Origin: a virus
Strand: one strand, 5' to 3'
DNA length: 64,000 nt
Virus record (IMG/VR): IMGVR_UViG_3300031419_000010
Span: 1-64,000 of that record
Shown here: one piece after another, positions 19,969-61,905 of the stretch
Layout of the letters: the number at the start of each line of letters is the position of its first letter
How positions within the stretch are numbered: position 1 is the stretch's first letter
Made by a program: the position numbers and the translations under genes
Notes under the pieces: generated by a model
The model's input: only the letters and a program-made list of their open reading frames with translations
Database searches by the model: none
What the model was told of the DNA's origin: nothing

Positions 19969-20025
19969 AGTATATAGGAATTGTCCTAGAATAGCCACCG
20001 CCGTTTTGGACACAGATTTGCAGAG
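19969..20025 (-). promoter_or_regulatory. box promoter 1 (upstream of gyrB)
   Basis: Box 19998-20025 + TGGCTA + 17 bp + TATACT. Confidence 0.8.
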
Positions 20026-20036
20026 TTGGTCAAACA

Positions 20037-20375
20037 TCAACCACTTACAACGGCATCCATTAACGTGCGATAACTTGCGTTATGCTCAGCATTGATCGGG
20101 ATAGGGAATTGGCCAGGCGATTCGGCAGAGCACCATTCAGCGATTGCTTTGCAAAATTCGCCGTATGCGATCATTTCGTCGCCGTCCATATCCGAAAGAA
20201 GTTTGATTTCGTGTGCAGTGCGGGAATCAATTACGCTAGTGTGCATTGATTGTTCCGGACGGTCATAAAAACAGATCGCGAATTTGGTAGGAGAGATTCG
20301 AACGGCGCGGAAAACTTCTTTGGAGAGTTCTAACAATTCGTCGTTGAGTTTTTTGAAACGTGCGTGAAGATCCAT
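20037..20375 (-). CDS. hypothetical protein
   Basis: 112 aa, AGGA RBS. Confidence 0.7.
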   Translation of the reverse strand: MDLHARFKKLNDELLELSKEVFRAVRISPTKFAICFYDRPEQSMHTSVIDSRTAHEIKLLSDMDGDEMIAYGEFCKAIAEWCSAESPGQFPIPINAEHNASYRTLMDAVVSG

Positions 20376-20403
20376 GTTGAATCCTGAAATTGCAGTAGAA
20401 ACG

Positions 20404-20434
20404 AAAAACGGGTTAGAGATTTCTCCCTAACCCG
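20404..20434 (-). terminator. intrinsic terminator
   Basis: CGGGTTAGGGA-GAAA-TCTCTAACCCG-TTTTT. Confidence 0.85.
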
Positions 20435-20460
20435 CATTGACTATTTAGTTTCGGGAACTA

Positions 20461-21021
20461 TTAATCCAGTTCGAATTCGAAATCCGCGTCACCGCTTTTA
20501 CCTTTTTTCTTGCCTTTGGCTTTTTTATCAGCCTTAGCTGGCTTTTCAGCTTTCGCTTTTTTGCCTTTAGCCGGTTTTTCTTCGGCAGCCGCTTTAGCTT
20601 TTTTACCAGCTTTAGCAGGCTTCTCTTCGGCCTTCACTTTTTTGCCTTTAGCTTTCGGCTCAGCAGCTTCTGCTTTAGCCTTTTTGCCTTTGGCTGGTTT
20701 TTCTTCGGCAGCAGCTTTCGCTTTTTTGCCTTTGGCTGGTTTCTCTTCGGCAGCAGCTTTGCCTTTGCCTTTTGCTTTTGGCTCAGCTTTAGCAGCTTTA
20801 CCTTTGGCAGCTTTCGGCTCAGCTTTAGCAGCTTTGCCTTTTGCAGCAGGAGCAACAGCTTCACCAGACAGAGCGCCAACCTGCTCAGTCAGACCGTCTT
20901 TAGTAGCGGCCAGATTTTCGCGCTGCTTTTGCAGGTTTTCGATGGTCTTAACCAGAGCGGCGTCAGATTTGTCGATGTTTTTGATCTGCTTGTTCAGGCC
21001 AGTGATTACTTTCTTAGACAT
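20461..21021 (-). CDS. histone H1-like Lys/Ala/Pro-rich DNA-binding protein
   Basis: N-terminal coiled coil, then KAAKAEPK and AAEEKPAKGKKAK repeats, acidic-aromatic tip DFEFELD. Confidence 0.75.
   Translation of the reverse strand: MSKKVITGLNKQIKNIDKSDAALVKTIENLQKQRENLAATKDGLTEQVGALSGEAVAPAAKGKAAKAEPKAAKGKAAKAEPKAKGKGKAAAEEKPAKGKKAKAAAEEKPAKGKKAKAEAAEPKAKGKKVKAEEKPAKAGKKAKAAAEEKPAKGKKAKAEKPAKADKKAKGKKKGKSGDADFEFELD
20500..20850 (-). repeat. degenerate coding tandem repeats (KGKAAKAEPKA x2; EEKPAKGKKAKA x~4)
   Basis: Visible in both protein and DNA. Confidence 0.75.
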
Positions 21022-21084
21022 AATGAAACCCTTACTATAAATGTTCGTTGTGGAGTTGAAACAGAATTAGTTCTGTATGGAAGT

Positions 21085-21140
21085 ACATTAGCATGTTCAA
21101 CATACTTCCACAATTTTTCTTTAAAGTTTTTTAAAGAATT
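21085..21140 (-). promoter_or_regulatory. sigma70-like promoter with AT-rich UP element for the H1-like gene
   Basis: TTGTGG-17 bp-TAATGT with TGn extension; upstream palindrome TTCTTTAAA-AAAC-TTTAAAGAA; inverted repeat TGGAAGTA/TACTTCCA spans -35 to -10. Confidence 0.5.
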
Positions 21141-21192
21141 TTTAGCCCACGCTCATCATGCGACTTAGTGGGCTGCGCCGGATCAGGATGAC

Positions 21193-21978
21193 TTATTCGT
21201 CGTCTTCGTCTTCGTCTTCGTCGTCGAAGTCTTCGTCTTCTTCGTCCTCTTCGTCTTCATCTTCGTCACCAGCGAAGTGAGCTTCCAGCGCTTCGCGCAG
21301 TTCTTCTTCGTCTTTCTTTTTAGCTTGCGCTTTGGTAAAGACGCCTTCTTCGATTGCTAAGGCGCGAAGTTCGTCTTCGTCGAGATCTTCGAGGTCGGTA
21401 TCTTCGTCCTCGTCTTCATCTTCGTCTTCGTCGTCTTCTTCGTCCTCTTCATCTTCATCGTCGCCGTCTTCGTCGTCTTCGTCGTCTTCGGAATCATCTT
21501 CCTCGTCTTCGTCCTCGTCTTCGTCGTCGCCGTCTTCATCTTCCTCTTCTTCGTCGTCCTCGTCCTCTTCGTCTTCTTCTTCATCAGACGCGCCTAACGC
21601 TTCTTGCAGGAGTTCCAGCAGTTCCTCAAGGTCGAGGTTAGCCGCTTTCTTTTTGGTAGAGATTTTGGCTTTAACAACCGCTTCACGCAGAACTTCTTCG
21701 TCTACGCCGTCCAGATCAATCGACTCTTCTTCTTCGATTGCTTCCACGATAGCAGCGGCAGTTACTTTCGACTTCTTACCAGCTTTTGCTTTTGCTTTCG
21801 GCTCAGCTTTAGCAGCTTTACCTTTAGCGCCTTTCGCACCAGTTGCGACAGTCAGACCTGCGGCTTCCAGAATCGCAGCAACTTCAACATCAGCGCTTGC
21901 AGCTTCGGACAGCAGACCAGCCATTTTAGCCAGAGTTTCCATCGCGGTGTTTGAGGTTTTCTTAGCAGCTTTAGCCAT
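21193..21978 (-). CDS. acidic protein with two HeH (Rho-N/SAP-like) modules and poly-D/E tracts
   Basis: Start at MAKAAKK (AGGA RBS); LDGVDEEVLREAVV..LEELLELL and LEDLDEDELRALAIEEGV..EEELREAL; ~60-residue D/E run. Confidence 0.8.
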   Translation of the reverse strand: MAKAAKKTSNTAMETLAKMAGLLSEAASADVEVAAILEAAGLTVATGAKGAKGKAAKAEPKAKAKAGKKSKVTAAAIVEAIEEEESIDLDGVDEEVLREAVVKAKISTKKKAANLDLEELLELLQEALGASDEEEDEEDEDDEEEEDEDGDDEDEDEDEEDDSEDDEDDEDGDDEDEEDEEDDEDEDEDEDEDTDLEDLDEDELRALAIEEGVFTKAQAKKKDEEELREALEAHFAGDEDEDEEDEEDEDFDDEDEDEDDE

Positions 21979-22033
21979 TTTTAAAATTTCCTGTTGGACT
22001 TGTTCAGAGTAACGAACCGTATTGTTCAATTAC

Positions 22034-22161
22034 TATTTACAGAATTAAAAGAAGTTTTGTTTGTGCCGCCGAAATTAATCAGCGGCTGTGACAGTCACTG
22101 TTTACAGTTTCTGTCTGGCAGAAAGAATTTATCATTTCTGCCTTACACGAATACTTTACAG
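22034..22161 (-). promoter_or_regulatory. cluster of three CTGTAAA(T/C/G) motifs interleaved with hairpins (putative phage-sigma promoters)
   Basis: CTGTAAATA at 22034-22042, plus CTGTAAAC and CTGTAAAG; stems GGCAGAAA/TTTCTGCC and GCCGCTGA/TCGGCGGC. Confidence 0.45.
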
Positions 22162-22174
22162 ATTCGGGCTGGAA

Positions 22175-22756
22175 TTAAAAGTTTTCGTCAGAAGACTTTT
22201 TCTTTTTCTTACCAGCTTTATCTTTGCCAGCTTTGGCAGAGATTTTTTCAACGCCGCCCTTTTTCTTTTCGATAGCCAGTGGCATATCGTACTTACGAGC
22301 GGCAACGGCTTCATCAACCATAGCGCGAACATCGAAGCCCGGAATGTCAGTAGCGATGCGAGTAATTTCGCCCGTCTGAACATCGGTACAAATCAGGACG
22401 CCTTCTTTCGCTTTGATCGTTTGACCGCGCAGAATTGAAACAGGCATGTAAGCAGAAACCAGCAGTTGACCAGTATCACCAACTTCACCGATAAAGCTAA
22501 TGATTTGGTTTTTGGTGAAGGTACTAACAACCTGCTTAGAACTACCAGCGCCTTTCTTGTGACGCAGAGTTACGCTACCATCAGCGCCAGCGTCGATAAT
22601 AAAGCCTGAAACTTCGTGTGCGCCGTGCGCTGAAATTTCAATGTCGTGCGCCAGATCGGTTTGCTTTGATTTAACACGCGCAATCGCGCCTGCTTTCTTT
22701 GCGATACGGTCAATGCGCTTTGGAACTAATGAGGTGGACTTAGAAGGCTTAGCCAT
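22175..22756 (-). CDS. hypothetical beta-rich protein with Lys-rich ends
   Basis: 193 aa, GGAG RBS. Confidence 0.8.
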   Translation of the reverse strand: MAKPSKSTSLVPKRIDRIAKKAGAIARVKSKQTDLAHDIEISAHGAHEVSGFIIDAGADGSVTLRHKKGAGSSKQVVSTFTKNQIISFIGEVGDTGQLLVSAYMPVSILRGQTIKAKEGVLICTDVQTGEITRIATDIPGFDVRAMVDEAVAARKYDMPLAIEKKKGGVEKISAKAGKDKAGKKKKKSSDENF

Positions 22757-22779
22757 TTTATTTTGAACTCCGGTTCAAC

Positions 22780-23538
22780 TTACTTCAATTGGTCAAGGAT
22801 GAATTCGACAACCAGATTAACTGAATCGTCGAAATGCTTTTCGTGAGTCACCAGAGGAATCAGCTTGATAGAAAACGTATGGCAGACTTCGCTAAACTTC
22901 TTCCACGTAGATTCAGAGGCATTCATCGTAACGATAATGTCGTGAATCTTTGCAAACTCCCAATGATGCGCTAGTTCGTTTTGTACATACGAACGAATGT
23001 TTTCGCGAACCAACTGTTTTTCCTTTACAGTTAATTCGACAAATAAGTTAGGCCAGTGAGAAATAAAATCGGTACTGACATTTTCAAACCGCTTACCAGA
23101 GTTTGACTGACTGGTAATCAGCGACCGGGCTGCGAAATGCGCTACCACAGTATGCAGGCGAGACAGCGCCGCATTTAAAACAGTTTCCACTAGACGCTCA
23201 GCAGGCGTTTCGGGAACATCCTGAATAATCTTTTCAAGTTCCGCAATACGGCGCTCGAAAGTTTCAACGTCACTGGCGTGGGCGCTAATCAATTCCTGAA
23301 TACGTTTTTCATATCCAAGTTTTTGTTCTTCGCCTCGCACTAAGACATTATTATATTCAGTGGTAATATTCGCTAAATTTTCTTTTGCGATTTCCAGACT
23401 GACTTTGGCATTTGCCAGTTCAGTCAGATTACCGTTTAAAACTTTTGAAACCGCCCTTTCCTTGACTACAACATTATCAAGTTCTTGCCGGGTATTGAAC
23501 AAAGTGCGATTTAAAATTTCAGTCTGTGAATCGGACAT
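22780..23538 (-). CDS. hypothetical coiled-coil protein
   Basis: Start trimmed to MSDSQ (AAGGA RBS). Confidence 0.75.
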   Translation of the reverse strand: MSDSQTEILNRTLFNTRQELDNVVVKERAVSKVLNGNLTELANAKVSLEIAKENLANITTEYNNVLVRGEEQKLGYEKRIQELISAHASDVETFERRIAELEKIIQDVPETPAERLVETVLNAALSRLHTVVAHFAARSLITSQSNSGKRFENVSTDFISHWPNLFVELTVKEKQLVRENIRSYVQNELAHHWEFAKIHDIIVTMNASESTWKKFSEVCHTFSIKLIPLVTHEKHFDDSVNLVVEFILDQLK

Positions 23539-23551
23539 TAAGGTATCCTTA

Positions 23552-23592
23552 AAATGGTGCAGAGCAAATCGCCCCACACCATTTATTTACAG
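23552..23592 (-). promoter_or_regulatory. CTGTAAATA motif followed by a hairpin
   Basis: CTGTAAATA at 23584-23592; AAATGGTGTGGGGC-GATTT-GCTCTGCACCATTT. Confidence 0.45.
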
Positions 23593-23593
23593 A

Positions 23594-26557
23594 TTACTCT
23601 TCGCTTTCGTCTTCTTCGTCAGATTCATCGGAATCCAAATCACTGACGCCAGACAGAAGCAGAACCAGATCACCGCCGTTAGCAAACGCAGCCTCAGCCA
23701 CACCAGAACACAGCAGAGTCAGCGGCAGGTTTTCAGTGCCGATTGAATGTGCCGCTTCCAGAATGTCATCGCTTTCGTTGATACGTGCAATGTCGTTCGT
23801 GGAGTAGGAAGAAACTGAAATGTCATCGTTAGCCATATCAGCAATGGCCTTAACAACAGTGCGCAGAGTTTCGTTGCTTACCAGTGAACCGGAGTTCAGC
23901 GTAAAGCCAACATAAACTTTGGTATCAGTTTCGCCCAAGTGTGAAACCACACGGTTGTAAGCGCTGGCAATCAGTGCCACAACTTTCTTACGATCCAGAC
24001 TCCAGATGCAAGGCATTGCGATGTTCAGCACTGCGGTATTCAGAACAGTGCTTTCGGTATCAACAGTTACCGGACGAACGCTAACATGCGCGTTGTACAG
24101 TGAAGCCATTGGAATGTGATCGCCCTGCATTTCGTTCAGGTAATCAGGCGACAGATTTTCATCTTCATCACCGAAATCATTTTCATCGTCGATGAAATCG
24201 CCCAGCACCAGACCGCTTTCATACGGATCTTGTCCAGCTTCCAAACGGCCTTCGTACAGCAGCGAATCGATCTGGCTGCGAATGGTGTTTGAAAGTTTTT
24301 CAGCATAGCTTTCAACATCGAAAGTTTTGCGGTCAGACATAAACGGCAGCGCAGAGCTTCCCGCCAGCACATCGCTAACAACAGTCAGCGGAAGATACAT
24401 AGAACCTTCTGCATCTTCGGTCATGTTGATCGGTACGCGGTAGTCGATACCGTTCTGATCTTTCAGTTCGTCGGAAATAGCTTCGAACGTCTGGCGATCA
24501 GTCAGCGTAAAGTTAACCAGCAGCGTTTGCTCCTGACGAATGCGCAAGAACGTTCCGAGATTGCTGGTAGAGCTTTCAGCAATGAAAGCATCATCACCGT
24601 CTTCTTCATCAGCGCTTTCGCTACCGTAGTCTGCGTTGTCTTCGTCTTCGGATTCTTCGTCGTCGCCTTCTTCTTCATCAGAAGATTCTTCAACGTCAGA
24701 AGATTCAATTTCTTCTTCGTCGTCTTCGACGCCTTCCAGTTCTGAATCAAGTTCAGAATCGTCCTGCTCGAAATTGTTCAGACGAAATTCATCGAACGCT
24801 TTCAGCGCAGCAACGCGGCCCAGCCCTTCGGTTTCAACGCCGACAGAATCCAGCGCAGCAATACGCTGTTCGTGATCCAGTTGAGCGCCTTCGAACATAA
24901 ACAGTTCAGAGTAATCAACCGGGTTGACTTCGTACTCTGCCCACTCAGGATACACGTCAGCAACAACAGGCAGTGCGCCCCAAGTTTGAATCATGTTTTC
25001 AAACTCTTCTGCGGTAGTACCCATCGACAGCACACCGATAATGCGCTCAGCAATATTTTCGGCAGTGTCGTTTTTGTAGGTTTTCTGATTCAGCGATTCG
25101 CTACGTGCGATAGTGCGCAGAACCGGACGCAGATCTTCGTCGATTTCGATTTCGCCGTCGCGAGTCAGCAGTTCAAGGAATTCAGTAGGAGCATCAAACT
25201 CCGCTTCTTCCTCGTCTTCTTCCTCTTCGGATTCTTCGGCGTCTTCGTCGTCGCCTTCTTCCTCTTCTTCGGTTTCAGAATCGTCTTCGGATTCTTCTTC
25301 CTCTTCCTCTTCTTCCGGCGCGTCGTCTTCCACCGCATCACTTTCTGCGTGGATGTAATCAGCGAAACCGCTCACGCCGCCAAGACGCTCGTTAGCTGCC
25401 ATTACAAAACTCCAGTGTTCGCTGTAGTCCTGATCTTCGACCAGTTCCAGAATTTTGGTAGTCAGCGTTTCTTCGGTATCGCTACCGAAAACTTTGCCGC
25501 CCAGCATAAACACCAGCTTTTTCAGTTGAGCACGATCCAGTTTAGCGCCCAGCAAAATAACTGCGGTTGCTTCGGAAGCGTTAAACACTTCCGCTTCTTC
25601 GTCGTCGCCTTCTTCCAGATCCAGCGAATCGTTTTCTTCGTCGTCGCCTTCGTCAGAATCGTCAACAGAAACTGCTTCGCCTGCGCCGCTCAGGAAATCT
25701 TTACGTTCCTGTTCGTACGACACCGCGATTTCGTTATCAGGCATTGCGGTGAGGTCATAGCCGAGTGCTTCCAGCGCTGCCATTTTTTCGTCAACAGAAA
25801 CTGAGGTTTGGTTGTCGCGTTTGAAAACGTCGAGAGGATTTGTCACTTTGTCACCCTTAATGGATTTAATCAGAAAGTTCACACGATTTACTTCGGAGCG
25901 AACTACAAAACTTAAAGCAGCACCAGCCAGAATGATTGAATCAGGACGCGCATCAGTCCAGTTCAGAACAGGCGCATTCATTTGGTCAACCGTAGCTTTC
26001 AGCACCGGAACAAAATTCGTTTCGTTGCTTTCAAACTTTTCCAGTTGCGCAGCCAGAGACTCAACAACACGAGCGCTGTTTGCTTCGGAAGTTACCGCGA
26101 TAGCATGAACGCCGAAACGAGAAGCGTACGAGTCTAACGTAGTATTATCATTCGCAGCCAATTCTGCGACTTTTAAAAGCGATTCGCTCAGCATACCTGC
26201 GAGGCGCTTCGTACTCCCATTTACAGTATAACGGATGATTACCGATGCACTGTCTTTCAGTTTGCAGCGCTCATCAATGCCTGCGTTTGCGCCGCCAGTT
26301 GGCCCCAGCAGATTCAGAATCGGCTGATCCTTTCCCGCCATTGCCAACAGGTCAGTAATGCGGTTCATCGCTTTGCCTTGCGCCACGGTTTGAACAACGT
26401 TTCCGTTTGGCTCAGCGCGAAGAATCTGATTACCATTTACAGTAGGACAAAGAACTACAACAACCGTGCTCTTTTCAGTTGAGGAACCTTGCGCAATGTT
26501 TTGAGCATTAACAGTTGCAGCGTGTGGTGCGGTTCCAAAATTTTGAGTTGACGACAT
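23594..26557 (-). CDS. very large acidic protein with several HeH-like modules separated by D/E linkers
   Basis: Start MSSTQ (GGAG RBS); ~987 aa; three long acidic tracts. Confidence 0.8.
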   Translation of the reverse strand: MSSTQNFGTAPHAATVNAQNIAQGSSTEKSTVVVVLCPTVNGNQILRAEPNGNVVQTVAQGKAMNRITDLLAMAGKDQPILNLLGPTGGANAGIDERCKLKDSASVIIRYTVNGSTKRLAGMLSESLLKVAELAANDNTTLDSYASRFGVHAIAVTSEANSARVVESLAAQLEKFESNETNFVPVLKATVDQMNAPVLNWTDARPDSIILAGAALSFVVRSEVNRVNFLIKSIKGDKVTNPLDVFKRDNQTSVSVDEKMAALEALGYDLTAMPDNEIAVSYEQERKDFLSGAGEAVSVDDSDEGDDEENDSLDLEEGDDEEAEVFNASEATAVILLGAKLDRAQLKKLVFMLGGKVFGSDTEETLTTKILELVEDQDYSEHWSFVMAANERLGGVSGFADYIHAESDAVEDDAPEEEEEEEESEDDSETEEEEEGDDEDAEESEEEEDEEEAEFDAPTEFLELLTRDGEIEIDEDLRPVLRTIARSESLNQKTYKNDTAENIAERIIGVLSMGTTAEEFENMIQTWGALPVVADVYPEWAEYEVNPVDYSELFMFEGAQLDHEQRIAALDSVGVETEGLGRVAALKAFDEFRLNNFEQDDSELDSELEGVEDDEEEIESSDVEESSDEEEGDDEESEDEDNADYGSESADEEDGDDAFIAESSTSNLGTFLRIRQEQTLLVNFTLTDRQTFEAISDELKDQNGIDYRVPINMTEDAEGSMYLPLTVVSDVLAGSSALPFMSDRKTFDVESYAEKLSNTIRSQIDSLLYEGRLEAGQDPYESGLVLGDFIDDENDFGDEDENLSPDYLNEMQGDHIPMASLYNAHVSVRPVTVDTESTVLNTAVLNIAMPCIWSLDRKKVVALIASAYNRVVSHLGETDTKVYVGFTLNSGSLVSNETLRTVVKAIADMANDDISVSSYSTNDIARINESDDILEAAHSIGTENLPLTLLCSGVAEAAFANGGDLVLLLSGVSDLDSDESDEEDESEE

Positions 26558-29724: not shown

Positions 29725-31278
29725 TTATTTCAGCAGAGAGCGCAGTTTTTTCTCGCTCATTTTTTCTGCTTTTTTCAGCGACGCCAGATTTTTACGAACT
29801 ACAACATCGCGAAGTTCGTCTTCGTCCATATCGTCGTAGTCTTCGTCATCGCCATCGAAATCTTCTTCGCCTTCTTCGTCTGATTCAGAAACGACAGGCG
29901 AGTATTCGCTCAGGCTTGCAATGTCGCTGTGATCGAATGCAACAACTTCTTTGCCACCTTCTTCAATAACCAGCAGATCAGAATCTTCGTCCAGACCGAT
30001 AAAGATCATTGTGTCGTCGCCGTCTGTCAGTTTCAGACCGGGAACCAGAGCGGATTTTTCAACGCCCCAAGTGTCGCACAGCATTTCGATATGCTCAGCG
30101 GTCACATCTTTATCAAGATCGCGCAGTTGAGCTTTGGACAGGGAAGCGTATTCGTATTCAGTTTCGGAATCGTCGTCGGAATCGTCGTCAGAGTCAGTTT
30201 CGGAATCGTCTTCCTCTTCTTCCTCTTCTTCCTCTTCTTCCTCTTCTTCCTCTTCTTCCTCTTCTTCCTCTTCTTCCTCTTCTTCCTCTTCTTCCTCTTC
30301 TTCCTCTTCGTCTGCTACGATTTCGTAGTGAGAGAGGCCAGCGGCTGAAACGTTGCGGAATTTTTCGCTTTCCAGATTGTACAGAACAGCTTTGTCTTTA
30401 TCTTCGACGTTCGGGCCACAGTAAACAAATTGACCGTCTTCACCTTCACGCACCAGCAGAGTTCCGGCAGTGAACATTTCAGGCTCAATGCTCAGATGTT
30501 CGCGAATCGCAGACGCCAGCTTTTTGCCAACGGTTTTGCCGACACGCGATTTGATTTTGCCAGCCAGTTCAGGACTGATTTCAAAACCGCCACTGACTTC
30601 TTCCGGCTCAGGCTGAACCAGCGCATATTTCAGATTCAGCGTTACGCGAATGTCGCCGCCTTCACGATCAAACTGAGTTGAGAAACCAACTTCGAACGCG
30701 TTATCAATTTTCGCGCCGTTCGGATCGAACTTCGCAATGTCTGAATCTTGCAGCGCTTTAACCAGACGTTCGGTTACAGCAGTTGAAAGAGTTTCGTCAA
30801 CTTCGCTCAGCAGAACAGAAGGAACTTGTTTGCCGCGACGTTTAACACCTTTCGATTCGGTATCTGCGTCAACGTCATCAGCTTTTTTACGGCGCACTTT
30901 AGAAACAGGCGCAGTGTCTTCGACCGCTTTGCGAGATTTACGAACGCCAGTTGATTTTTCAGCGGCTGGAGCTTTAGCAGCTTTTTTGCCAGCAGACTTA
31001 GAAGGCTTTTCTACGAATGCGTCAGTGCCAACTTTTTTCTGCATCGCTTTGTCGGCAAATTCAACGTAACCTTCGCCAGTGTCGTTCAGATCGCGCAGAG
31101 ACACGTTAGGAATTTCGTAATACACCGCGCCTTTTTTCGCAAGCTGTTTGCTGTTAACGCGAACAGTGCGATCAGCAACTTTATAGCCAGTTGCCATTGC
31201 GTCAGTGATTTTAGTTTTGGTGCCGTCCAGCAGAACAACAGATTTACCGATCAGTTTAGTTGAGGTTGCGATTGCCAT
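29725..31278 (-). CDS. multidomain protein with poly-Glu tract and C-terminal HeH module
   Basis: 517 aa; E33 run; C-terminal YDDMDEDELRDVVVRKNL..MSEKKLRSLL. Confidence 0.85.
   Translation of the reverse strand: MAIATSTKLIGKSVVLLDGTKTKITDAMATGYKVADRTVRVNSKQLAKKGAVYYEIPNVSLRDLNDTGEGYVEFADKAMQKKVGTDAFVEKPSKSAGKKAAKAPAAEKSTGVRKSRKAVEDTAPVSKVRRKKADDVDADTESKGVKRRGKQVPSVLLSEVDETLSTAVTERLVKALQDSDIAKFDPNGAKIDNAFEVGFSTQFDREGGDIRVTLNLKYALVQPEPEEVSGGFEISPELAGKIKSRVGKTVGKKLASAIREHLSIEPEMFTAGTLLVREGEDGQFVYCGPNVEDKDKAVLYNLESEKFRNVSAAGLSHYEIVADEEEEEEEEEEEEEEEEEEEEEEEEEEEEEEEEEDDSETDSDDDSDDDSETEYEYASLSKAQLRDLDKDVTAEHIEMLCDTWGVEKSALVPGLKLTDGDDTMIFIGLDEDSDLLVIEEGGKEVVAFDHSDIASLSEYSPVVSESDEEGEEDFDGDDEDYDDMDEDELRDVVVRKNLASLKKAEKMSEKKLRSLLK
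30211..30309. repeat. perfect 9-bp tandem repeat (TTCCTCTTC)x11 encoding 33 Glu
   Basis: Counted directly. Confidence 0.95.
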
Positions 31279-31344: not shown

Positions 31345-31401
31345 ATAGTGCTGTATATTTGCGATATTATCAATCGCAATTTTGGACACCATTTTGCAGA
31401 G
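31345..31401 (-). promoter_or_regulatory. box promoter 2
   Basis: Box 31374-31401 + TTGATA + 17 bp + CACTAT. Confidence 0.8.
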
Positions 31402-31423: not shown

Positions 31424-31497
31424 AAAAAAGTGTAGGCTTCCTTGCCTACAAAAAGTTCCACGCACATTGTATTCGTTTGAGGCGTTGCCGCCCCGTC
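31424..31497 (-). ncRNA. candidate ~73-nt small RNA
   Basis: Box promoter 3, then 5' hairpin GGGGCG-GCAA-CGCCTC, a single-stranded middle, and terminator TGTAGGC-AAGGAA-GCCTACA-CTTTTTT; no plausible ORF. Confidence 0.6.
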
Positions 31498-31502
31498 CTT
31501 AA

Positions 31503-31559
31503 AGTTTAGCAAAAAGGGCCAGCGATTTCCAGCGCTATTTTGGACACCTTTTTGCAGAG
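31503..31559 (-). promoter_or_regulatory. box promoter 3
   Basis: Box 31532-31559 + TGGAAA + 17 bp + TAAACT. Confidence 0.8.
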
Positions 31560-31578
31560 TTCGAAACTTCCCGGCCTG

Positions 31579-32055
31579 TTATTCTGAGGCCATATCCATA
31601 TCGTCAGTATCGGCATGGATACGTTTCAGCATTGCGATATAAATTTCGCGGCGCTCAAGCGGCAACTGCTTATTCGTGATTGCGCCGTCATTGATAGCAT
31701 CGCGAATCAGAACATCAAGCGCCGTGTTTTTGTATGCGTCACTCAACGCGTCGTAATCTGATTGGCTATAGCTAAACTCAGTTTCGTTAGCAGGTTTAAT
31801 TTTGGTATGAGGTGAATCTGACATATTCGCGTCAGTAACTTTTTCCACTTCGTCCAAAACTTGCGGCGTGTATTCATTAAGCAGAGTTTTGAAATCATCC
31901 ATAGGCAAGCCGATATGTTTGATTGTTTCATGCGTTGCAGATTTGCCGCCATCCTCAGTGTGGCGAGAAAGTGCTTCCAAAGTTCCAGCAAGTGCCAGCG
32001 CCAGCAATTTGATTTGAGTGTCTTTGCAAGTTTCGGTGAACTTCATTGTAGTCAT
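31579..32055 (-). CDS. hypothetical protein
   Basis: 158 aa, directly after box promoter 4. Confidence 0.75.
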   Translation of the reverse strand: MTTMKFTETCKDTQIKLLALALAGTLEALSRHTEDGGKSATHETIKHIGLPMDDFKTLLNEYTPQVLDEVEKVTDANMSDSPHTKIKPANETEFSYSQSDYDALSDAYKNTALDVLIRDAINDGAITNKQLPLERREIYIAMLKRIHADTDDMDMASE

Positions 32056-32079
32056 CCTGTTTTGTTTGGGTGAGCTTTA

Positions 32080-32136
32080 ATAGTGATAGAAACCGCCGGG
32101 AATATCCAGCGGTATTTTGGACAATGTTTTGCAGAG
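32080..32136 (-). promoter_or_regulatory. box promoter 4
   Basis: Box 32109-32136 + TGGATA + 17 bp + CACTAT. Confidence 0.8.
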
Positions 32137-33993: not shown

Positions 33994-34050
33994 ATATTGC
34001 AAAATCTAGCGGCTAAAAACAACCGCTATTTTGGACACTGTTTTGCAGAG
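33994..34050 (-). promoter_or_regulatory. box promoter 5
   Basis: Box 34023-34050 + TTGTTT + 17 bp + CAATAT. Confidence 0.8.
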
Positions 34051-37438: not shown

Positions 37439-37493
37439 ATAGAACTCCTTTGCAGTCTATATTTGGGTTAAGTTGGATACTGCCTTCCTGTTT

Positions 37494-37550
37494 AGTTTAC
37501 CGAAAAGCAGTACCGAAAACCAGCGGTATTTTGGACACTTATTTGCAGAG
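37494..37550 (-). promoter_or_regulatory. box promoter 6
   Basis: Box 37523-37550 + TGGTTT + 17 bp + TAAACT. Confidence 0.8.
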
Positions 37551-38153
37551 ATCGACCAGCTCCACAGTATAGAATCCGTCAACAGGTTCGTTTCTGCCGT
37601 CCTTGAATCGGGCAAAGAAAGGCAGCAGCTTGATTTCTTTGTTTAGCTGTTTTGCCAGCGCATCGGTAAACAACTTTTTACGTGCCAGCAGTTTTTGATA
37701 CGCAACTTCGTCGCCTTTCTCTTTGAAGTTGTGCAGACCGCGCTCCAGATTTTCCATGTGATTTGTGAAAAGCGAATACTCTAAATATTCGTCTGCGTTA
37801 GTCAGTGCTTCACAGTCACCGCCAAACTTTTCATAGAGCGCAGTAAAGAAACTGATTTTGCGATCAGCGCTATCGTCCATCTGACCGTAACTTGCTTTCG
37901 GATATTGATTGTGCGCCTGAACACCATCACATTCGAAAATAAAACCATCGTACTTTTTATCGTTCTCGTCGCCGTAATCACACGCAACTTTGTGGTGCTC
38001 TTTGCAAACGGCTTCGATAAATTTCACATCCACAATATCGACCGAAAGATCCGTTGTTGGATAAGAATGTGCTTTTTCGAGCGGAGTATTGCGGCCTTCA
38101 AATTTAAACTGAAAAGCAAAGAACACATATTTTTTGTCGAGTTCAAAACGCAT
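37539..38153 (-). CDS. hypothetical protein
   Basis: 204 aa; stop codon lies inside box 6. Confidence 0.75.
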   Translation of the reverse strand: MRFELDKKYVFFAFQFKFEGRNTPLEKAHSYPTTDLSVDIVDVKFIEAVCKEHHKVACDYGDENDKKYDGFIFECDGVQAHNQYPKASYGQMDDSADRKISFFTALYEKFGGDCEALTNADEYLEYSLFTNHMENLERGLHNFKEKGDEVAYQKLLARKKLFTDALAKQLNKEIKLLPFFARFKDGRNEPVDGFYTVELVDLCK

Positions 38154-41607: not shown

Positions 41608-41664
41608 AGTTTATCTTAAAATTTGCGTTAATTCTACTGGTATTTTGGACACAAATTTGCAGAG
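41608..41664 (-). promoter_or_regulatory. box promoter 7
   Basis: Box 41637-41664 + TAGAAT + 17 bp + TAAACT. Confidence 0.8.
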
Positions 41665-45570: not shown

Positions 45571-45627
45571 AGACTACCTGAACAATCGGGCCAAAACCAG
45601 CCCTATTTTAGACAGTTATTTGCAGAC
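45571..45627 (-). promoter_or_regulatory. box promoter 8 (variant)
   Basis: GTCTGCAAATAACTGTCTAAAATAGGGC + TGGTTT + 17 bp + TAGTCT. Confidence 0.75.
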
Positions 45628-54936: not shown

Positions 54937-54985
54937 AGTAAGTTCCTTATACGGGGGATTAGATACGACAAAAGGCCGTCCTCTA

Positions 54986-55042
54986 AGAATACAGGAAAGC
55001 CTTTCGGTTTAACAGCGGTATTTTGGACACTTATTTGCAGAG
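54986..55042 (-). promoter_or_regulatory. box promoter 9
   Basis: Box 55015-55042 + TGTTAA + 17 bp + TATTCT. Confidence 0.8.
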
Positions 55043-55583: not shown

Positions 55584-55587
55584 TTTA

Positions 55588-56247
55588 TTACCTTCTACTT
55601 TTACGTGGGAAAAGAGACATGAATGCAGGATTCGCTTTGCCTGATTTAATCTCTTCAATGTTTTTCATTGTATCTTGCATCAAATCTGCCATCGTTTGAT
55701 TTGAGATACCAAGATCATTCGGTGTAAGAATACCGAAAGGCGTAGCGTCCAAAAGAAACTGCATTCCCATCAAACTGTCATGGATACGCGTTACTTCTTT
55801 TCCTTTCTCTACATCACCGTTAAATGCGAATCGAGAAAAGATATGGCGCATTTTGTACGTGTGTATTAGCTGAATATGTGCGCTGTCCATTCCGCGATTA
55901 GCCATATACGACATTTGATATTGCAGACGCAGACTATCAAGAGTGATCTCAAGTTTGCGTAAACGCTGGCGGTATTCATCCAGCTTTGCCACTTCATCAG
56001 GCAGATTGGCTTCGCAAAAATCAAAGGCCACCATTTCCTTGTCGCCGCTTCCATAGCGACGGCTGGCGCGAACCTGTTTGAACGTGTGCGTGATAAAATA
56101 AATTTTGCGGCGCAGAGCGTGACACAAAGCATTTGTCGCCACACCGTGAAGCTGCAAACGTTCGCATGTTTCACCGTGGAATAAATCGTCAGTGTCTGCG
56201 CTTCGTGATTTGCGCTGGTAATGAGCGTTGGTGAAAAATCGAGACAT
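55588..56247 (-). CDS. hypothetical protein
   Basis: 219 aa. Confidence 0.7.
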   Translation of the reverse strand: MSRFFTNAHYQRKSRSADTDDLFHGETCERLQLHGVATNALCHALRRKIYFITHTFKQVRASRRYGSGDKEMVAFDFCEANLPDEVAKLDEYRQRLRKLEITLDSLRLQYQMSYMANRGMDSAHIQLIHTYKMRHIFSRFAFNGDVEKGKEVTRIHDSLMGMQFLLDATPFGILTPNDLGISNQTMADLMQDTMKNIEEIKSGKANPAFMSLFPRKSRR

Positions 56248-56993: not shown

Positions 56994-57198
56994 TGTTATT
57001 TTTCTCACTATCCCGTTTGAAGTTGTGGCGAATCTTCTTAACCTGCACAACAATCAAAAACAAAAAGCCTGTCCAGATTGCTATATAACGCATCGTGAAT
57101 GCAGGCGGGTTATCGTCCAGTACGTCAAAAAAGAAATAGGCTGTGATAGCAAGGCAGATAGACCACAGCACTGCGATGATAAAATATTTGTTGTGCAT
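56986..57198 (-). CDS. small two-TM membrane protein
   Basis: Two hydrophobic segments and a basic tail. Confidence 0.7.
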   Translation of the reverse strand: MHNKYFIIAVLWSICLAITAYFFFDVLDDNPPAFTMRYIAIWTGFLFLIVVQVKKIRHNFKRDSEKNNNV

Positions 57199-57248
57199 AT
57201 TTATCTCCGTTTTGATTTTCGAGATCTACGTTCCAGAACTAAATTTCC

Positions 57249-57446
57249 TTAACGGCGTTTGGGTGGATTGCGCAGACGACGGCGAAGTTTCTCAAGCGGT
57301 GTCTTCGCCTTCGCAATTTTCTCGCGGCGCTTCTGGCGCATTTCAGAGATCTTCAAAATGTTTTTGAGGAACCCCGCCAGATGCGCCAAAATGCCAAACG
57401 AGGCGATAACATAAAACACTGTCTCACTCGTTTGGTGTATGTTCAT
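57249..57446 (-). CDS. small membrane-anchored basic protein
   Basis: N-terminal TM, Arg/Lys tail. Confidence 0.6.
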   Translation of the reverse strand: MNIHQTSETVFYVIASFGILAHLAGFLKNILKISEMRQKRREKIAKAKTPLEKLRRRLRNPPKRR

Positions 57447-58145
57447 TTAGATTTTACCTTCCTGATAAAGTTTAAACAGCTTTAACATTCCCACAGGCAC
57501 GGTTTCCGATTCTGTGTTCAGCATTTCCATACAGGTTAAAGGCCAGATCTCCAGAGGGCGACCGTCAGTAAAAGGTAATGACAAGACGCCTTCTAAAATG
57601 CTTTTGCGAATCTCGTTCCACGACTTGCCTTCTTCGTTTGTGTTGATTGCTTCCCAACACTCAGGAGTAAGCTGATCAAGAAACGTAGAATGAATCCGCG
57701 TGTCTTCCAGCTTAGCGTTCGGTTGCTTTCTGTGTTGCAGTAAGCGCAGGTGTTCCGGATAGTCCGTCCATTCGATCTTTATCGGAAGAAGAAAACTTTC
57801 TTCCGGTTTAGCATCGCGCACATTTTCCAGCGTTGCCAGATACGCATTGGCTGTCCGGCCAGGCAGAAGGTTTTCAGGATCAAACTGGTTATGGTTAAAG
57901 CGAACATAGCCCAAGTTGGCAACAAACTGAAACTCTTCAAAGCGAGAACGAATCACAGGAAGAATATAACTGTGATTGATAAAGCGATAGCCTTTCACTT
58001 CCGGATCGATTTTTACTGGAAGACGAAAACCTTTTTTATCTTTGGTGTTCAGTTCCATCCAGTAGATATACTGACGATGAATGATGCCGTTAATTGAAAA
58101 GTGTGCCTCGCCAAACTGTTCAGTTTTGAAATGTTCAAGACGCAT
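57447..58145 (-). CDS. hypothetical protein
   Basis: 232 aa. Confidence 0.7.
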   Translation of the reverse strand: MRLEHFKTEQFGEAHFSINGIIHRQYIYWMELNTKDKKGFRLPVKIDPEVKGYRFINHSYILPVIRSRFEEFQFVANLGYVRFNHNQFDPENLLPGRTANAYLATLENVRDAKPEESFLLPIKIEWTDYPEHLRLLQHRKQPNAKLEDTRIHSTFLDQLTPECWEAINTNEEGKSWNEIRKSILEGVLSLPFTDGRPLEIWPLTCMEMLNTESETVPVGMLKLFKLYQEGKI

Positions 58146-58813
58146 CAGTTTTCCTCCACGTCACAATCACAGGAACCGCGACCGCAATTTTCGCAGTCAG
58201 GTAAGCACTGGCAGGATTCAGAGTGGCAGTGAGAGCAAATATCTTCTTCGTCACAATCCTCTTCGCTTTCGCAGTCGCAGTCATCGCCAATCTGACCGCC
58301 GCAAGTGTCACACCACTGAGTTTCTTCTTCCTTGTACATATCTTCGTACGCGTGATCGGTGGCGTCGATGATTGCAGGACTCAGACCCGTAAAGCGCGAC
58401 ACACAATCACGCGCATAATCGAGCATCTGCTCTTTGGTGTACGCCGGATAACTATGATCCGCAAACGTCGCTTTGGGTTTAGGCAGCGACACGTAACCAG
58501 TTGGCAAAGTTTTCGCGGCTTGTTCGTCTTCCGGATCAAGGCGAACATCCAGACGGTACAAAGCAAAACTTAATGCACTACGCGCATCGCGAATAATGAT
58601 TTCAGAATCGAAAAGATTTGTGCAAACGATCACAATGTCTTTGCCGTCATTCTCACTGCACAAAGTTACAGTGCCGTTGTCGTTGTCCAGCGTGATTTGC
58701 TGAGGCTCAACTTTAACGTTAAGAGAATCGCCGTGATAAAGAACATCGCGATATGCAGCAGAATGATCGCCAGTACCCATAACCAGAGAAAGAAGGCTTC
58801 CGAAATTTGTCAT
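58145..58813 (-). CDS. paralog family B member with Cys-rich C-tail
   Basis: Three CxxC...CxC units at the C-terminus. Confidence 0.7.
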   Translation of the reverse strand: MTNFGSLLSLVMGTGDHSAAYRDVLYHGDSLNVKVEPQQITLDNDNGTVTLCSENDGKDIVIVCTNLFDSEIIIRDARSALSFALYRLDVRLDPEDEQAAKTLPTGYVSLPKPKATFADHSYPAYTKEQMLDYARDCVSRFTGLSPAIIDATDHAYEDMYKEEETQWCDTCGGQIGDDCDCESEEDCDEEDICSHCHSESCQCLPDCENCGRGSCDCDVEEN

Positions 58814-58824
58814 GATGAGTTTCC

Positions 58825-59565
58825 TTATTTGCTGATCCACGCACGAATGCGAGAAATTTTCGATGTGCTTTCGTACGCCATAACATGCAAGGCACGATCC
58901 AGAGAACCAAAGATGCCAGTTGTTTCATTCAACTTAGCTGGCAAGTCGCCTTCATATTTCAGCGCCACAGCAACAATAGCTTCCTGCTCCAGAGCCGCAA
59001 GATCTTTTATAATCTCTGAAAGCTCTTTGCTTGTGATACCAAATTCTTTGCGCAATAACGGACGCAGATAAATAGATTTTTTGTGTTGATGTACCCACGC
59101 ATGGGCGCATTCAATCAAAGGACGATCAGTTGGCTCTTTGATTTCCGGCTCAGGAATATCAAATGACTTTTCACCCGGTGTAGGAACAGTATGTGCGCCC
59201 CAGCTTTCGTCTATTGCGTTGTTTGATTGCGTGTCCTCAATGTCACGGTTGTTTGCGCAGTCCAAAACAAAATGCAGCGCGTGAGTAGCTTCGGCAAAAA
59301 CAACGTTGCGGTAAATTGGATCTTCGCATTCGTGCGCAACGGCGCGAACCATAATGTTTTTACCGTGGGAGAAAATAGAAAACGTCAGGTTCACGTCTTC
59401 GGAGAAATCAAGCACGGTAATGTTGATTGAGTTTTTATTGATTGTGGCTGAAAAACCTTCGTCAGCCAGCATTGCGCGAATGGTAACAGCGGCGATGTTG
59501 TTCGTTGATTGGCGACCAAACGCTTCAACAAAAATTGCAGCAATCAAAGTCAATTTATCGTTCAT
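58825..59565 (-). CDS. paralog family B member
   Basis: FSIFSHGKNIMV..FAEATHALHFVLDCA. Confidence 0.7.
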   Translation of the reverse strand: MNDKLTLIAAIFVEAFGRQSTNNIAAVTIRAMLADEGFSATINKNSINITVLDFSEDVNLTFSIFSHGKNIMVRAVAHECEDPIYRNVVFAEATHALHFVLDCANNRDIEDTQSNNAIDESWGAHTVPTPGEKSFDIPEPEIKEPTDRPLIECAHAWVHQHKKSIYLRPLLRKEFGITSKELSEIIKDLAALEQEAIVAVALKYEGDLPAKLNETTGIFGSLDRALHVMAYESTSKISRIRAWISK

Positions 59566-60512
59566 TACTTGATCCATCCTGTCATGCGTTTGATAAGAGA
59601 TCTTTTGTTTCGTGCGGCTAAGCGGTACGCCTGAACTTCACCAAGCAGCAGCGTTAAGACGGCAAACATATCATAGGTATCGTCTTCGATTTCGTCGCGA
59701 TCCGTATACGCCATATATGCTTCTTCAACTTCTTCTGTTTCAAGATTGCCAATATCTCCAACAACCAAAGAGAACGGACGGTTTTTTGTTTCGACACAGA
59801 GCATACTCAATGTCTCTTCAAAAAATTCATTATCCTTGTTTTGGCAATACCAAATCACCGCTTGCGCTTTGAGGCGAATGCGCATTTCGTGAGATTCGTT
59901 TTCAAACTCGCGTGAATTTATCGCAATGTGGTCAAGAGACGAGAAAGGTTCAGCCATATAAAATTCGGCGTGTTGAACCAGATCCTGAACTTCTTTAGAC
60001 AGAGGTTTTGACGAGTCACCTTCAAGAAATTCTTTTAATTCGCCAACACTGAGTTTGCGTGAAGTGTCTTCTTCATCGAAATCTTCGTTGCCATCCCACT
60101 CTTCGCTGTCATCTGACTCTTCGTAGGTTGGGTTTTCGAAACGATACCAGAGCGGTTTTAATTCACCTGTTGGTTCGATAACTTTTTCTTCCACAGCGCA
60201 AAGGACAATCCACTTAACAGCCTGCTCGATGGTTTCAAAACGAGCGGTTGCTTTGTGGTAATGATCATTGAACTCATCGGTCAAAATAACTTTCAGGTTA
60301 TTTGAATGAGGGAAAATTTCAGCTTCAATGTCGTGGTTGGAAAAGCCGCGAGTAAGTTTCGCAGAGAGTTTGCCTTGATCCGATTTGGTATAAACTTGAG
60401 CGCGAGTAAGTTTGCTGAACTCGCGAAGTGTAAGAACGATTCCGCTATCGGTGTCACGTCCAGAATGCGCTTCGACGATTTGAGAGAAGAGTTGGTTAAG
60501 TTTGCTGTTCAT
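59565..60512 (-). CDS. paralog family B member
   Basis: AEIFPHSNNLKV..FETIEQAVKWIVLCA. Confidence 0.75.
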   Translation of the reverse strand: MNSKLNQLFSQIVEAHSGRDTDSGIVLTLREFSKLTRAQVYTKSDQGKLSAKLTRGFSNHDIEAEIFPHSNNLKVILTDEFNDHYHKATARFETIEQAVKWIVLCAVEEKVIEPTGELKPLWYRFENPTYEESDDSEEWDGNEDFDEEDTSRKLSVGELKEFLEGDSSKPLSKEVQDLVQHAEFYMAEPFSSLDHIAINSREFENESHEMRIRLKAQAVIWYCQNKDNEFFEETLSMLCVETKNRPFSLVVGDIGNLETEEVEEAYMAYTDRDEIEDDTYDMFAVLTLLLGEVQAYRLAARNKRSLIKRMTGWIK

Positions 60513-60539
60513 AGCAATTCCTTAGTAAGAGAGGTTTTA

Positions 60540-60833
60540 TTACAGACGGTTTTGATGTGCGAACACACCGTTTTCTTCGTACTTGATTAAAGAGAAATGG
60601 TTATCCCAAACAGGTGAAGCGAGATCGTAAACTTCGGTAACGTCAGGAGAACCGCCAACAGCTTTTAAAAATTGTTGCGCATCAGTTTCACAGTCAAAGA
60701 AAGCAAAAACACTACGCGCCATATCCAAACGATCAGGAAGAGGAACAAACCAGAACCGACAACAGTGAGTGCTTGTTTCTTTGCGAGTCAAAGAACCGTT
60801 ATGCTTTTCGAGTGCCAGAATAGCTTGAGTCAT
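60540..60833 (-). CDS. hypothetical protein
   Basis: 97 aa. Confidence 0.65.
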   Translation of the reverse strand: MTQAILALEKHNGSLTRKETSTHCCRFWFVPLPDRLDMARSVFAFFDCETDAQQFLKAVGGSPDVTEVYDLASPVWDNHFSLIKYEENGVFAHQNRL

Positions 60834-60850
60834 TTTGTTTTCCCTAGTGC

Positions 60851-60875
60851 AAAGAAGCCGCTCATTTTGGGCGGC
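60851..60875 (-). terminator. intrinsic terminator
   Basis: GCCGCCCA-AAA-TGAGCGGC-TTCTTT. Confidence 0.6.
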
Positions 60876-60883
60876 AGAAAGTT

Positions 60884-61330
60884 TTAGCCTCTAGCGGGCT
60901 GGCCTGTATGACGTACGATGATTTCCGGATATTCGAAATCGCCGTTACGACGAGTTACGCGCTGATAGTATTGCTCACGCGGATAACCTTTCGGCGCTGC
61001 GAAGATTGCAGGCTCATCCCCAAAGTTCAGATAGGGATCGATGTATTCCTCCATATCGAGAAATTCCGACATTGGCGCACTGCCAACATAATCGAAAAGA
61101 GGAATCCACTCAGACGTGGTGCGAATGTAACGCCACTTTGTTTCGCCAAAGCCGGGAACCTTTATGAGATCCTCCAGCAGCATGTGCGAAGTCTGAACAA
61201 CCGACTCAACTTTAACGCCGTTGATGTTTGGCGCAATGAAACTCAAACTAGGTGAGTCTTTCAGATCCAGTTCATTTACGATCTGATTCAGCGTGTACAC
61301 GTTACGGCTAACAGGAAAACGTTTTTTCAT
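60884..61330 (-). CDS. hypothetical protein
   Basis: Start trimmed to MKKRF (GGAG RBS). Confidence 0.7.
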   Translation of the reverse strand: MKKRFPVSRNVYTLNQIVNELDLKDSPSLSFIAPNINGVKVESVVQTSHMLLEDLIKVPGFGETKWRYIRTTSEWIPLFDYVGSAPMSEFLDMEEYIDPYLNFGDEPAIFAAPKGYPREQYYQRVTRRNGDFEYPEIIVRHTGQPARG

Positions 61331-61416
61331 TTTTACTTTCTCCAAATGCCCGGACAAATTCCGGTGCGTAGTAGGAACATTTCAAAGGACACTCTTTCGA
61401 ATGCCCTTCACAATGT

Positions 61417-61803
61417 TTAAATCAGATCCAGCAAATCAAGAATCGGTTTTCCAACCGGAACCGGAACGATGTAGAAATCGAAACGCGGCTGAGTTTCTTC
61501 GTCGGCGTTGTAAACAACATCGTAAACGCCGTGAACATTTATGATGCGATTGTCTGCCAGCACAACGCGCATTTGTTCGATCATGTTCGCGCTGTCGCTT
61601 TCGGCTAACTTGCCTTGCGATGCAGGAAGACGATTTGAAAGCGCTTTCGGGTTTGTGGTTCCCAAAACGTTGAAACCGATGTTTACGCCAGTTGTTTTCT
61701 GTTTGATGATCGCCGCTTCCAGCAAGCGAAGCATTGCTTCATAACGTACGTGGCTGGCTGAGTTACCGAACATCTGAATAGAAGGCGCTTTAGTCTGTTG
61801 CAT
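61417..61803 (-). CDS. hypothetical protein
   Basis: 128 aa, first gene after box promoter 10. Confidence 0.7.
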   Translation of the reverse strand: MQQTKAPSIQMFGNSASHVRYEAMLRLLEAAIIKQKTTGVNIGFNVLGTTNPKALSNRLPASQGKLAESDSANMIEQMRVVLADNRIINVHGVYDVVYNADEETQPRFDFYIVPVPVGKPILDLLDLI

Positions 61804-61848
61804 GGTTTGTCTCTTTGTTGTGGTAAGCTAGGATTGGCCTACGCTTAT

Positions 61849-61905
61849 ATTTTGCCGGAAAAAGCCGTCCAAATCGAGCGGTATTTTGGACACAGATTTG
61901 TAGGG
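61849..61905 (-). promoter_or_regulatory. box promoter 10
   Basis: CCCTACAAATCTGTGTCCAAAATACCGC + TCGATT + 17 bp + CAAAAT. Confidence 0.75.

Follow-up and report, generated by a model that had tools for sequence, protein, structure and literature searches.

Phage promoters that pair a phage-specific upstream site with a sigma70 -10 hexamer are well known from T4, Mu, P2 and lambda. The early promoters of T4 are used by the host sigma70 holoenzyme, carry conserved upstream A-tracts and are enhanced once Alt modifies the alpha subunit, and the T4 middle promoters combine the MotA box with AsiA-mediated sigma appropriation. The Mu Pm and late promoters (Mor and C), the late promoters of P2 and P4 (Ogr/Delta) and lambda PRE (CII) depend on an activator whose site lies just upstream of a poor -35 hexamer and which recruits polymerase through alpha and/or sigma region 4. 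Finally, PeSL cassettes, in which a stem-loop terminator is followed by an A/T-rich stretch and sigma70-like -35 and -10 hexamers (PMC4122927), mediate modular shuffling in T4-like phages (PMC2839356, PMC4122927). Here, we describe a repeated 28-bp box in the first 64 kb (the window) of IMGVR_UViG_3300031419_000010, a 110,870-bp IMG/VR viral contig with an estimated completeness of 44%; positions above 64,000 refer to the contig. We give a probability of about 0.5 to the reading that this box marks an activator-dependent promoter class which is read by the host sigma70 polymerase and is used early or delayed-early in infection. Because a phage-specific upstream site ahead of a sigma70 -10 is an established arrangement, we regard the class as an extension and not as a new principle: the general design is known, and the box itself is new.

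First, the box recurs with an invariant layout. A pattern search that allowed up to three mismatches returned nine copies, all on the minus strand (19998, 31374, 31532, 32109, 34023, 37523, 41637, 55015 and 61878), and none in 100 shuffles. A tenth copy at 45600, with four mismatches, was picked up both in a core search and with a weight matrix, on which it scores 34.8 bits. All ten boxes that the initial annotation had placed on the minus strand were therefore recovered, where zero would be expected by chance. The weight matrix added an eleventh copy beyond the window, at contig 67603-67630 on the minus strand, and no further box in the 110.9-kb contig, in which the best non-box site scored 9.0 bits as compared to 35-47 bits for the copies; all 11 copies lie within 20-68 kb. 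Each box consists of a distal part, CTCTGCAAA, a freely varying gap of 3 bp, and a proximal part, xTGTCCAAAA, which starts 12 bp after the distal part and ends AAAAT. The arrangement is asymmetric and has no dyad, with two co-oriented parts, each ending CAAA, 12 bp apart. About half of the 28 positions hold an invariant G or C (CTCTGC, GTGTCC, CGC). Directly after the box, without any gap, comes a hexamer whose first base is T and whose third base is usually G; 17 bp of unrelated DNA follow, and then a second hexamer, with A as its second base and T as its sixth. The -35-like and -10 hexamers with 17-bp spacer reported earlier match exactly what adjoins each box. The T directly after the box and the A2/T6 pair are present in 11 of 11 copies, the hexamer consensus is TAnA(A/C)T, and the end of the box lies 23 bp ahead of the hexamer at all sites. 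Relative to the predicted start, the box would thus occupy about -63 to -36, with its centre near -49.5 and its A-tracts at -57 to -55 and -45 to -42. The box had been called class II-like, a term that is imprecise, as the box abuts the -35 without overlapping it. All 11 copies are co-oriented with the genes and come after gene ends, which most of them abut or overlap, leaving predicted leaders of 18-106 nucleotides (nt). Overlap with upstream stop codons had also been noted, and is seen at box 37523, in which the variable triplet is the TAA stop of gene 37539-38153, and at 45600, where the upstream frame terminates in a TAG within the box. The cores alone are weak, scoring 1.7-9.9 bits on a -35/-10 matrix on which 123 random contig sites reach at least 9 bits.

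Second, this layout is shared by related phages. The contig is assigned to a Salmondvirus-like jumbo phage with nearly all genes on the minus strand up to about 93 kb. Its closest cultured relatives, at about 77% nucleotide identity, are the Dickeya solani jumbo phages JA29, JA13, JA11 and JA33 (genus Salmondvirus), and more distant relatives are Erwinia and Dickeya phages of the genera Alexandravirus, Yoloswagvirus and Sasquatchvirus. Jumbo phages of this group lack an RNA polymerase of their own and carry sigma factor genes (PMC7412058, PMC7824862). There are 10 box copies in JA29 and 9-10 in JA13. All share the strand of the genes in a syntenic region at 200-245 kb, and each follows the end of one gene and precedes the start of the next by 94-149 bp. 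We aligned 46 sites without gaps from the present phage, JA29, JA13, three Alexandravirus genomes (SNUABM_32, AD1 and Alexandra) and Yoloswag; once a few Alexandravirus sites had been shifted by 1 bp, 46 of 46 sites have T at -35 as well as A2 and T6 of the hexamer, and 38 of 46 have G at -33. About eight further sites, with a box variant of their own and the same geometry, come from Sasquatchvirus Y3, and the distance from box to -10 is constant within 1 bp at more than 50 sites in four genera. Across ten sites orthologous between the present phage and JA29, identity is 0.44 in the 25 bp upstream, 0.84 in the box, 0.57 in the -35 hexamer, 0.52 in the spacer, 0.78 in the -10 hexamer and 0.42-0.51 downstream. 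The box and the -10 are two constrained islands within otherwise freely drifting DNA, and conservation ends sharply at the box edges and skips the 3-bp gap. The information profile and the ortholog identities (0.84 for the box as opposed to 0.52-0.57 for the spacer and -35) bear out the earlier statement that the box is better conserved than the core. Taken together, the co-orientation, the 18-106-nt leaders, the gap-free layout of the 46 sites and the conservation of box and -10 uphold the proposal of one promoter class with an upstream element that is probably functional. In IMG/VR, a pattern scan gave mostly single matches at chance level, with multiple copies confined to the known jumbo genomes and one 256.7-kb relative, and our literature search found no paper that describes the motif or the promoters of these phages.

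The constant spacing also bears on whether the box could instead be an operator, that is, the site of a phage repressor that shuts off early transcription from cores that work unaided. The cores of the Erwinia phages are good extended -10 promoters which should fire without help, as such a model would predict. However, the cores of the present phage and of the JA phages are weak, the box overlaps neither the -35 nor the -10, and a distance fixed within 1 bp across four genera is typical of polymerase recruitment rather than of blocking. We therefore consider an operator very unlikely.

Compared with the known systems, the box class resembles T4 early promoters in its use of the host sigma70 holoenzyme (predicted here), in conservation that extends to about -55/-60 with A-tracts near -42 and -52/-57, in serving small non-essential genes in plastic regions, and in an ADP-ribosyltransferase carried by the phage. 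T4 early promoters, however, have a near-consensus core and an upstream region that is merely A/T-rich, whereas the box class combines a weak core with a 28-bp word in which some positions are invariant G/C and one half is genus-specific. With the Mu, P2/P4 and lambda PRE promoters it has in common a sigma70 -10, a poor -35 and a phage-specific site at about -30 to -65. The sites of Mor, C and Ogr are dyads and CII binds TTGC repeats that straddle the -35, whereas the asymmetric box stops at -36 and leaves T-n-G in place at the -35; no homolog of these activators came to light, although no search was aimed at them. T4 middle promoters similarly join a phage-specific box to a sigma70 -10, and serve nucleotide-metabolism and topoisomerase-type genes. 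Their MotA box, however, takes the place of the -35 and has its centre at -30, while the present box lies at -63 to -36 with T-n-G retained, and the class thus falls outside the T4 middle design. Like PeSL cassettes, the box promoters are repeated in hyperplastic regions, at the borders of genes that vary between relatives. In contrast to PeSLs, they usually have no terminator upstream: most boxes abut or overlap upstream stop codons, and only cassette 2 (box 31374) has a terminator just ahead of it. Their hairpins are found downstream of the start or surrounding the -10, and their conserved word is not A/T-rich.

The resemblance to PeSL cassettes raises the question of whether the box serves transcription at all, or instead acts as a site of recombination or of mobile cassettes, or as an RNA element in the 3' ends of upstream transcripts. 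In the alignment with JA29, divergence is highest across the 48-kb box region. On both sides of box 61878 the neighbouring genes differ from those around the matching JA29 box at 205180, and at 31532-32136 on the minus strand a 155-amino-acid gene (31579-32046) is bounded by boxes 32109 and 31532. This gene is absent from JA29 and JA13, and the box-gene-box unit suggests the expected product of recombination between boxes; together with the stop codons that boxes abut or overlap, it is what a role outside transcription would explain. Such a role leaves unexplained the fixed distance to the A2/T6 hexamer, the co-orientation with genes and the conserved -10. Moreover, the sharp box edges and the skipped 3-bp gap are unlike gene conversion tracts, and gene conversion is disfavoured because the gap varies and the edges are sharp. 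Recombination at the boxes is more likely a by-product, and a primary function of this kind appears most improbable.

Third, the two parts of the box evolve differently. The distal part is nearly fixed in all genera, while the proximal half is nearly invariant inside each genome and differs by phage genus: it reads GTGTCC in the present phage and the JA phages (Salmondvirus; host Dickeya for the JA phages), TGGTC in Yoloswag (host Erwinia), CTGGAC or CTGGCT in Alexandravirus (hosts Erwinia, and Dickeya for AD1) and TAGGCT in Y3 (host Erwinia). It is unlike among three genera that infect Erwinia amylovora and between two (JA29 and AD1) that infect Dickeya solani MK10. Because the proximal half tracks phage genus and not host, we favour a phage-encoded reader that co-evolves with its site; a host factor or alpha as the reader is disfavoured because phages of the same host carry unlike proximal words. 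We also compared the box by eye with consensus sequences for the host regulators CRP, Fis, IHF, PhoB, ArcA, PhoP, CpxR and MarA/SoxS, and none fits. In the favoured model, host RNA polymerase with primary sigma70 would read a weak core of T-n-G (-35/-33), a 17-bp spacer and TAnA(A/C)T (-12 to -7), to which a TGn motif at the -10 may sometimes add, and would start transcription about 7 nt past the hexamer. A phage-encoded, sequence-specific protein would bind the box through distal CTCTGCAAA and the genus-specific proximal part, and could contact the alpha C-terminal domains, sigma region 4 or both, thereby compensating for the weak core.

The initial annotation had named a sequence-specific activator and a non-canonical UP element as alternatives. 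Several observations weigh against a dedicated phage activator. The JA phages have no annotated transcription factor besides a DksA/TraR protein (PMC6143709), and we found no candidate for a box-reading protein. If the class is the earliest one, a phage activator would need to be injected, or to be made from promoters not found here. The two half-sites resemble each other at 5-6 of 8 positions (2 of 8 in Y3), a modest similarity that makes a tandem dimer just one option for binding. The remaining points favour a different model, in which the alpha C-terminal domains of the host polymerase directly recognise the box as a non-canonical UP-type element, without a dedicated activator, and the class is truly early; possibly, alpha would first be ADP-ribosylated by an injected phage enzyme, as proposed for Alt at T4 early promoters. 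The A-tracts of the box (-57 to -55 and -45 to -42) line up with the A positions of the UP-element consensus, so that alpha alone could explain part of the effect. Furthermore, the full JA29 genome shows no other host-type promoter class, yet something must work at time zero. The phage also encodes an ART-PolyVal ADP-ribosyltransferase (contig 103483-104160, plus strand; Pfam E 6e-26), a family proposed to act like T4 Alt (PMC7824862), and this enzyme is a possible injected modifier of the host polymerase. Finally, the chromosomes of Leclercia and Silvania, in which phage proteins are absent, carry a single conserved copy of the box, and this copy could indicate that the box acts without such a protein. 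On the other hand, minor-groove binding by the alpha C-terminal domains leaves the invariant G or C at about half of the box unexplained, the sequence does not follow the host, given the unlike proximal halves in three genera on Erwinia amylovora and in two on one Dickeya strain, and the single copy per host genome is not accompanied by a host regulon. On balance, a UP-type element without an activator seems possible to us but rather doubtful.

With regard to the polymerase that reads the core, the Alexandravirus sites have an extended -10 (TGn) in 10 of 11 cases and keep G-33 in 6 of 11, as compared to TGn at 1 of 11 and G-33 at 10 of 11 sites in the present phage, and the Erwinia phage hexamers are often TATAAT, TACAAT or TATACT preceded by TGn. 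A trade-off between an extended -10 and the -35 is expected of primary sigma factors, and because TGn and the -35 G trade off between genera we favour a sigma70-type reading. This is relevant to a further model, in which the host core enzyme works with one of two sigma-like proteins of the phage and the box is bound by an extra domain of that sigma or by a partner. The phage encodes a clear sigma factor (phrog_17569, contig 81227-82270) and, at 12197-13330 on the minus strand, a 377-residue protein of phrog_19229 (unknown function) whose residues 143-377 resemble sigma2 and sigma4 folds. In a structural model of the latter (predicted local distance difference test score, pLDDT, 75), residues 143-377 align to extracytoplasmic function (ECF) sigmas, sigma28 and sigma70 regions 2-4 with Z-scores of up to 9.9, and residues 1-140 form an extra helical N-terminal domain. 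The protein is probably a second sigma-like factor, as judged from the structural Z-scores; the assignment stops short of proof, given weak Foldseek E-values and a helical fold, and a sequence profile searched against the PDB returned nothing. The sigma factor gene, the unexplained N-terminal domain of about 140 residues and C at hexamer position 5 in 24 of 46 sites, which is unusual for sigma70, would all suit a phage sigma. However, a primary sigma leaves the signature seen here, namely TGn/TATAAT hexamers and a trade-off of TGn against the -35 G, and the box lies at least 23 bp upstream of the -10, out of reach of sigma region 4. Homologs of the 12197-13330 protein occur in every relative checked, PaBG and Lu11 included, and both sigma-like genes have homologs in these two phages (PMC7412058), in which we saw no box before the topoisomerase genes in the 60 kb examined of each; a correlation of the 12197-13330 protein with the box was accordingly rejected. 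In addition, a separate motif described below, CTGTAAA, which resembles the T4 late box and is abundant in Lu11, is a more natural target for a phage sigma. Reading of the box class by a phage sigma is thus unlikely.

The copy in bacterial chromosomes came from an exact-pattern scan of 185,579 species genomes, which gave eight matches where, by our own estimate, about four would be expected by chance. Three of the eight lie at one locus, between gor and treF, in Leclercia adecarboxylata, a Leclercia metagenome-assembled genome and Silvania hatchlandensis, and share 30 of 31 bases, flanks included, with the eleventh copy of the contig. The 34-nt block that contains the box is the longest invariant intergenic stretch across the three genomes. 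It is followed by TTGTTT, a 17-bp spacer, TCATTA or TAATTA, a conserved hairpin and a ribosome site, and stands ahead of a 134-residue open reading frame with weak pentapeptide repeats. No flanking phage genes are shared at the locus. This pentapeptide-repeat gene family is confined to Leclercia and Silvania, whose genomes have one box each, and 400 other genomes of the same bacterial family gave only near-matches at the level of controls, so that we see no host regulon. Some pentapeptide-repeat proteins are DNA mimics with an effect on type II topoisomerases. The host copy may be a captured promoter that uses host factors, or it may be a phage-triggered switch, in which case the pentapeptide-repeat gene, switched on by the phage activator, could act against the phage, for example against its box-driven topoisomerase. 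The full version of this idea, that a hitherto undescribed, genus-co-evolving phage activator docks on the box and that enterobacterial hosts have wired the box in as an infection sensor, is a long shot. The conserved host copy nevertheless raises the question of whether bacteria exploit the phage's own promoter code.

With respect to gene content, the boxes stand at the head of the topoisomerase II genes and of about ten accessory blocks, made up of small genes, in the 48-kb plastic region. In JA29 numbering the class covers gp238-gp312, mostly small hypothetical genes, with an RNA 2'-phosphotransferase, the DksA/TraR protein, a UV endonuclease, a dUTPase, a transglycosylase and a phosphohydrolase as named products. 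These positions fit the earlier claim that the box controls the topoisomerase operon and most accessory operons, a control that we infer from them, and with this content of topoisomerase and accessory genes the class is probably early or delayed-early. The box thereby marks the transcription units of about 75 mostly unknown genes from sequence alone, in a clade of plant-pathogen jumbo phages (Dickeya, Erwinia) that are considered for biocontrol. The genus-specific half-site also provides a handle on the reader protein, as JA29 and AD1 have unlike boxes and infect the same strain.

Among the individual cassettes, all on the minus strand, cassette 1 (19969-20025) comprises box 19998-20025, the T-n-G hexamer at 19992-19997 and the -10 TATACT at 19969-19974, 90 bp ahead of the gene for the large subunit of topoisomerase II (17839-19908). 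The topoisomerase II pair (689 and 565 residues; 16145-19908, minus strand), named after the annotation of its JA29 orthologs (89% and 81% amino-acid identity), forms the first genes downstream. Orthologous boxes precede the topoisomerase gene at 245204 in JA29, 245940 in JA13, 257927 in Alexandra, 257465 in SNUABM_32 and 252719 in Y3. No strong terminator separates the topoisomerase genes from the 12197-13330 gene in the same gene string; this gene may therefore be expressed from cassette 1, and the box class could start a sigma cascade. One gene upstream of box 1, at 20408-20435 on the minus strand, we noted a strong intrinsic terminator with a 12-bp stem followed by T5, and the 112-residue gene 20037-20375 between this terminator and box 1 has no recognisable promoter of its own.

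Cassette 2 (31345-31401; box 31374-31401, TTGATA, -10 CACTAT) is the downstream half of a tandem pair before a 517-residue gene (29725-31278); the pair is kept in JA29, JA13 and Yoloswag. Cassette 3 (31503-31559) comprises box 31532-31559, TGGAAA and TGc-TAAACT. Between boxes 3 and 2, at 31424-31496 on the minus strand, promoter 3 would yield an RNA of about 73 nt with a 5' GCAA-loop hairpin, which ends in an intrinsic terminator (a GTAGGC/GCCTAC stem, then T6) just before box 2. JA29 and JA13 keep this unit, a candidate small RNA, and an Rfam search of it gave no match. Cassette 4 (32080-32136; box 32109-32136, -10 CACTAT) lies before gene 31579-32046, and cassette 5 (33994-34050; box 34023-34050, -10 CAATAT) has its ortholog at 232009 in JA29. 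In cassette 6 (37494-37550; box 37523-37550, -10 TAAACT) a long stem flanks the -10. Cassette 7 (41608-41664; box 41637-41664, -10 TAAACT) corresponds to 224488 in JA29, and cassette 8 (45571-45627), with the most diverged box (45600-45627) and a -10 TAGTCT followed by a long hairpin, to 220514. Cassette 9 (54986-55042; box 55015-55042) has its -10 TATTCT in the loop of a terminator-like stem, and cassette 10 (61849-61905; box 61878-61905) has the -10 CAAAAT.

A short hairpin just after +1 had been ascribed to most copies. This stands in part: a G+C-rich stem begins at about +1 to +5 in 7 of 11 copies, but only 2 of 11 56-nt leaders fold better than shuffles (z < -2). At two promoters the -10 is enclosed in the loop of a long stem (54960-55005 and 37460-37515, minus strand), the arms of which differ wholly from those in JA29 and JA13 while their complementarity is kept. 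At 55015, the 3' arm merges into a T-rich tail, and the structure may be an upstream terminator that overlaps the promoter.

Outside the box class, a classical strong sigma70 early class was considered and rejected, as matrix matches to strong canonical -35/-10 promoters look random on both strands of the contig and of the complete JA29 genome. A second promoter-like class consists of the motif CTGTAAA with an A-rich flank, which lies 43-130 nt before gene starts, is strand-biased towards genes, resembles the T4 late box TATAAATA, and precedes the phage sigma gene and replication genes. It occurs 30 times in the contig and 82 times in JA29, where about 31 copies would be expected under uniform base frequencies, and is frequent in Lu11 also. 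Sites on the minus strand lie at 4309, 16108, 22042, 22107, 22161, 23592 and 44031 of the window and at contig 72705, 77906, 81213, 82313, 85873 and 92051, and sites on the plus strand at contig 95527, 97213, 101504 and 104914. CTAATTT is a candidate late-promoter word: over 40-175 kb of the JA29 minus strand it was counted 16 times on the strand of the structural genes and twice on the other. CTGTAAA and CTAATTT are better candidate targets for the phage sigmas than the box is, and the simplest scheme would assign host sigma70 to the box class and the two short motifs to the phage sigmas. Together with the two sigma-like genes, the three motifs would outline a three-step programme, in which a host-sigma class is followed by two phage-sigma classes. 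Finally, beside the sigma gene, at contig 82592-83062 on the minus strand, a 156-residue protein matches Acb1, a phosphodiesterase directed against the cyclic-oligonucleotide-based anti-phage signalling system (anti-CBASS; PF23474, E 7e-11), and matches 2H phosphoesterase families too.

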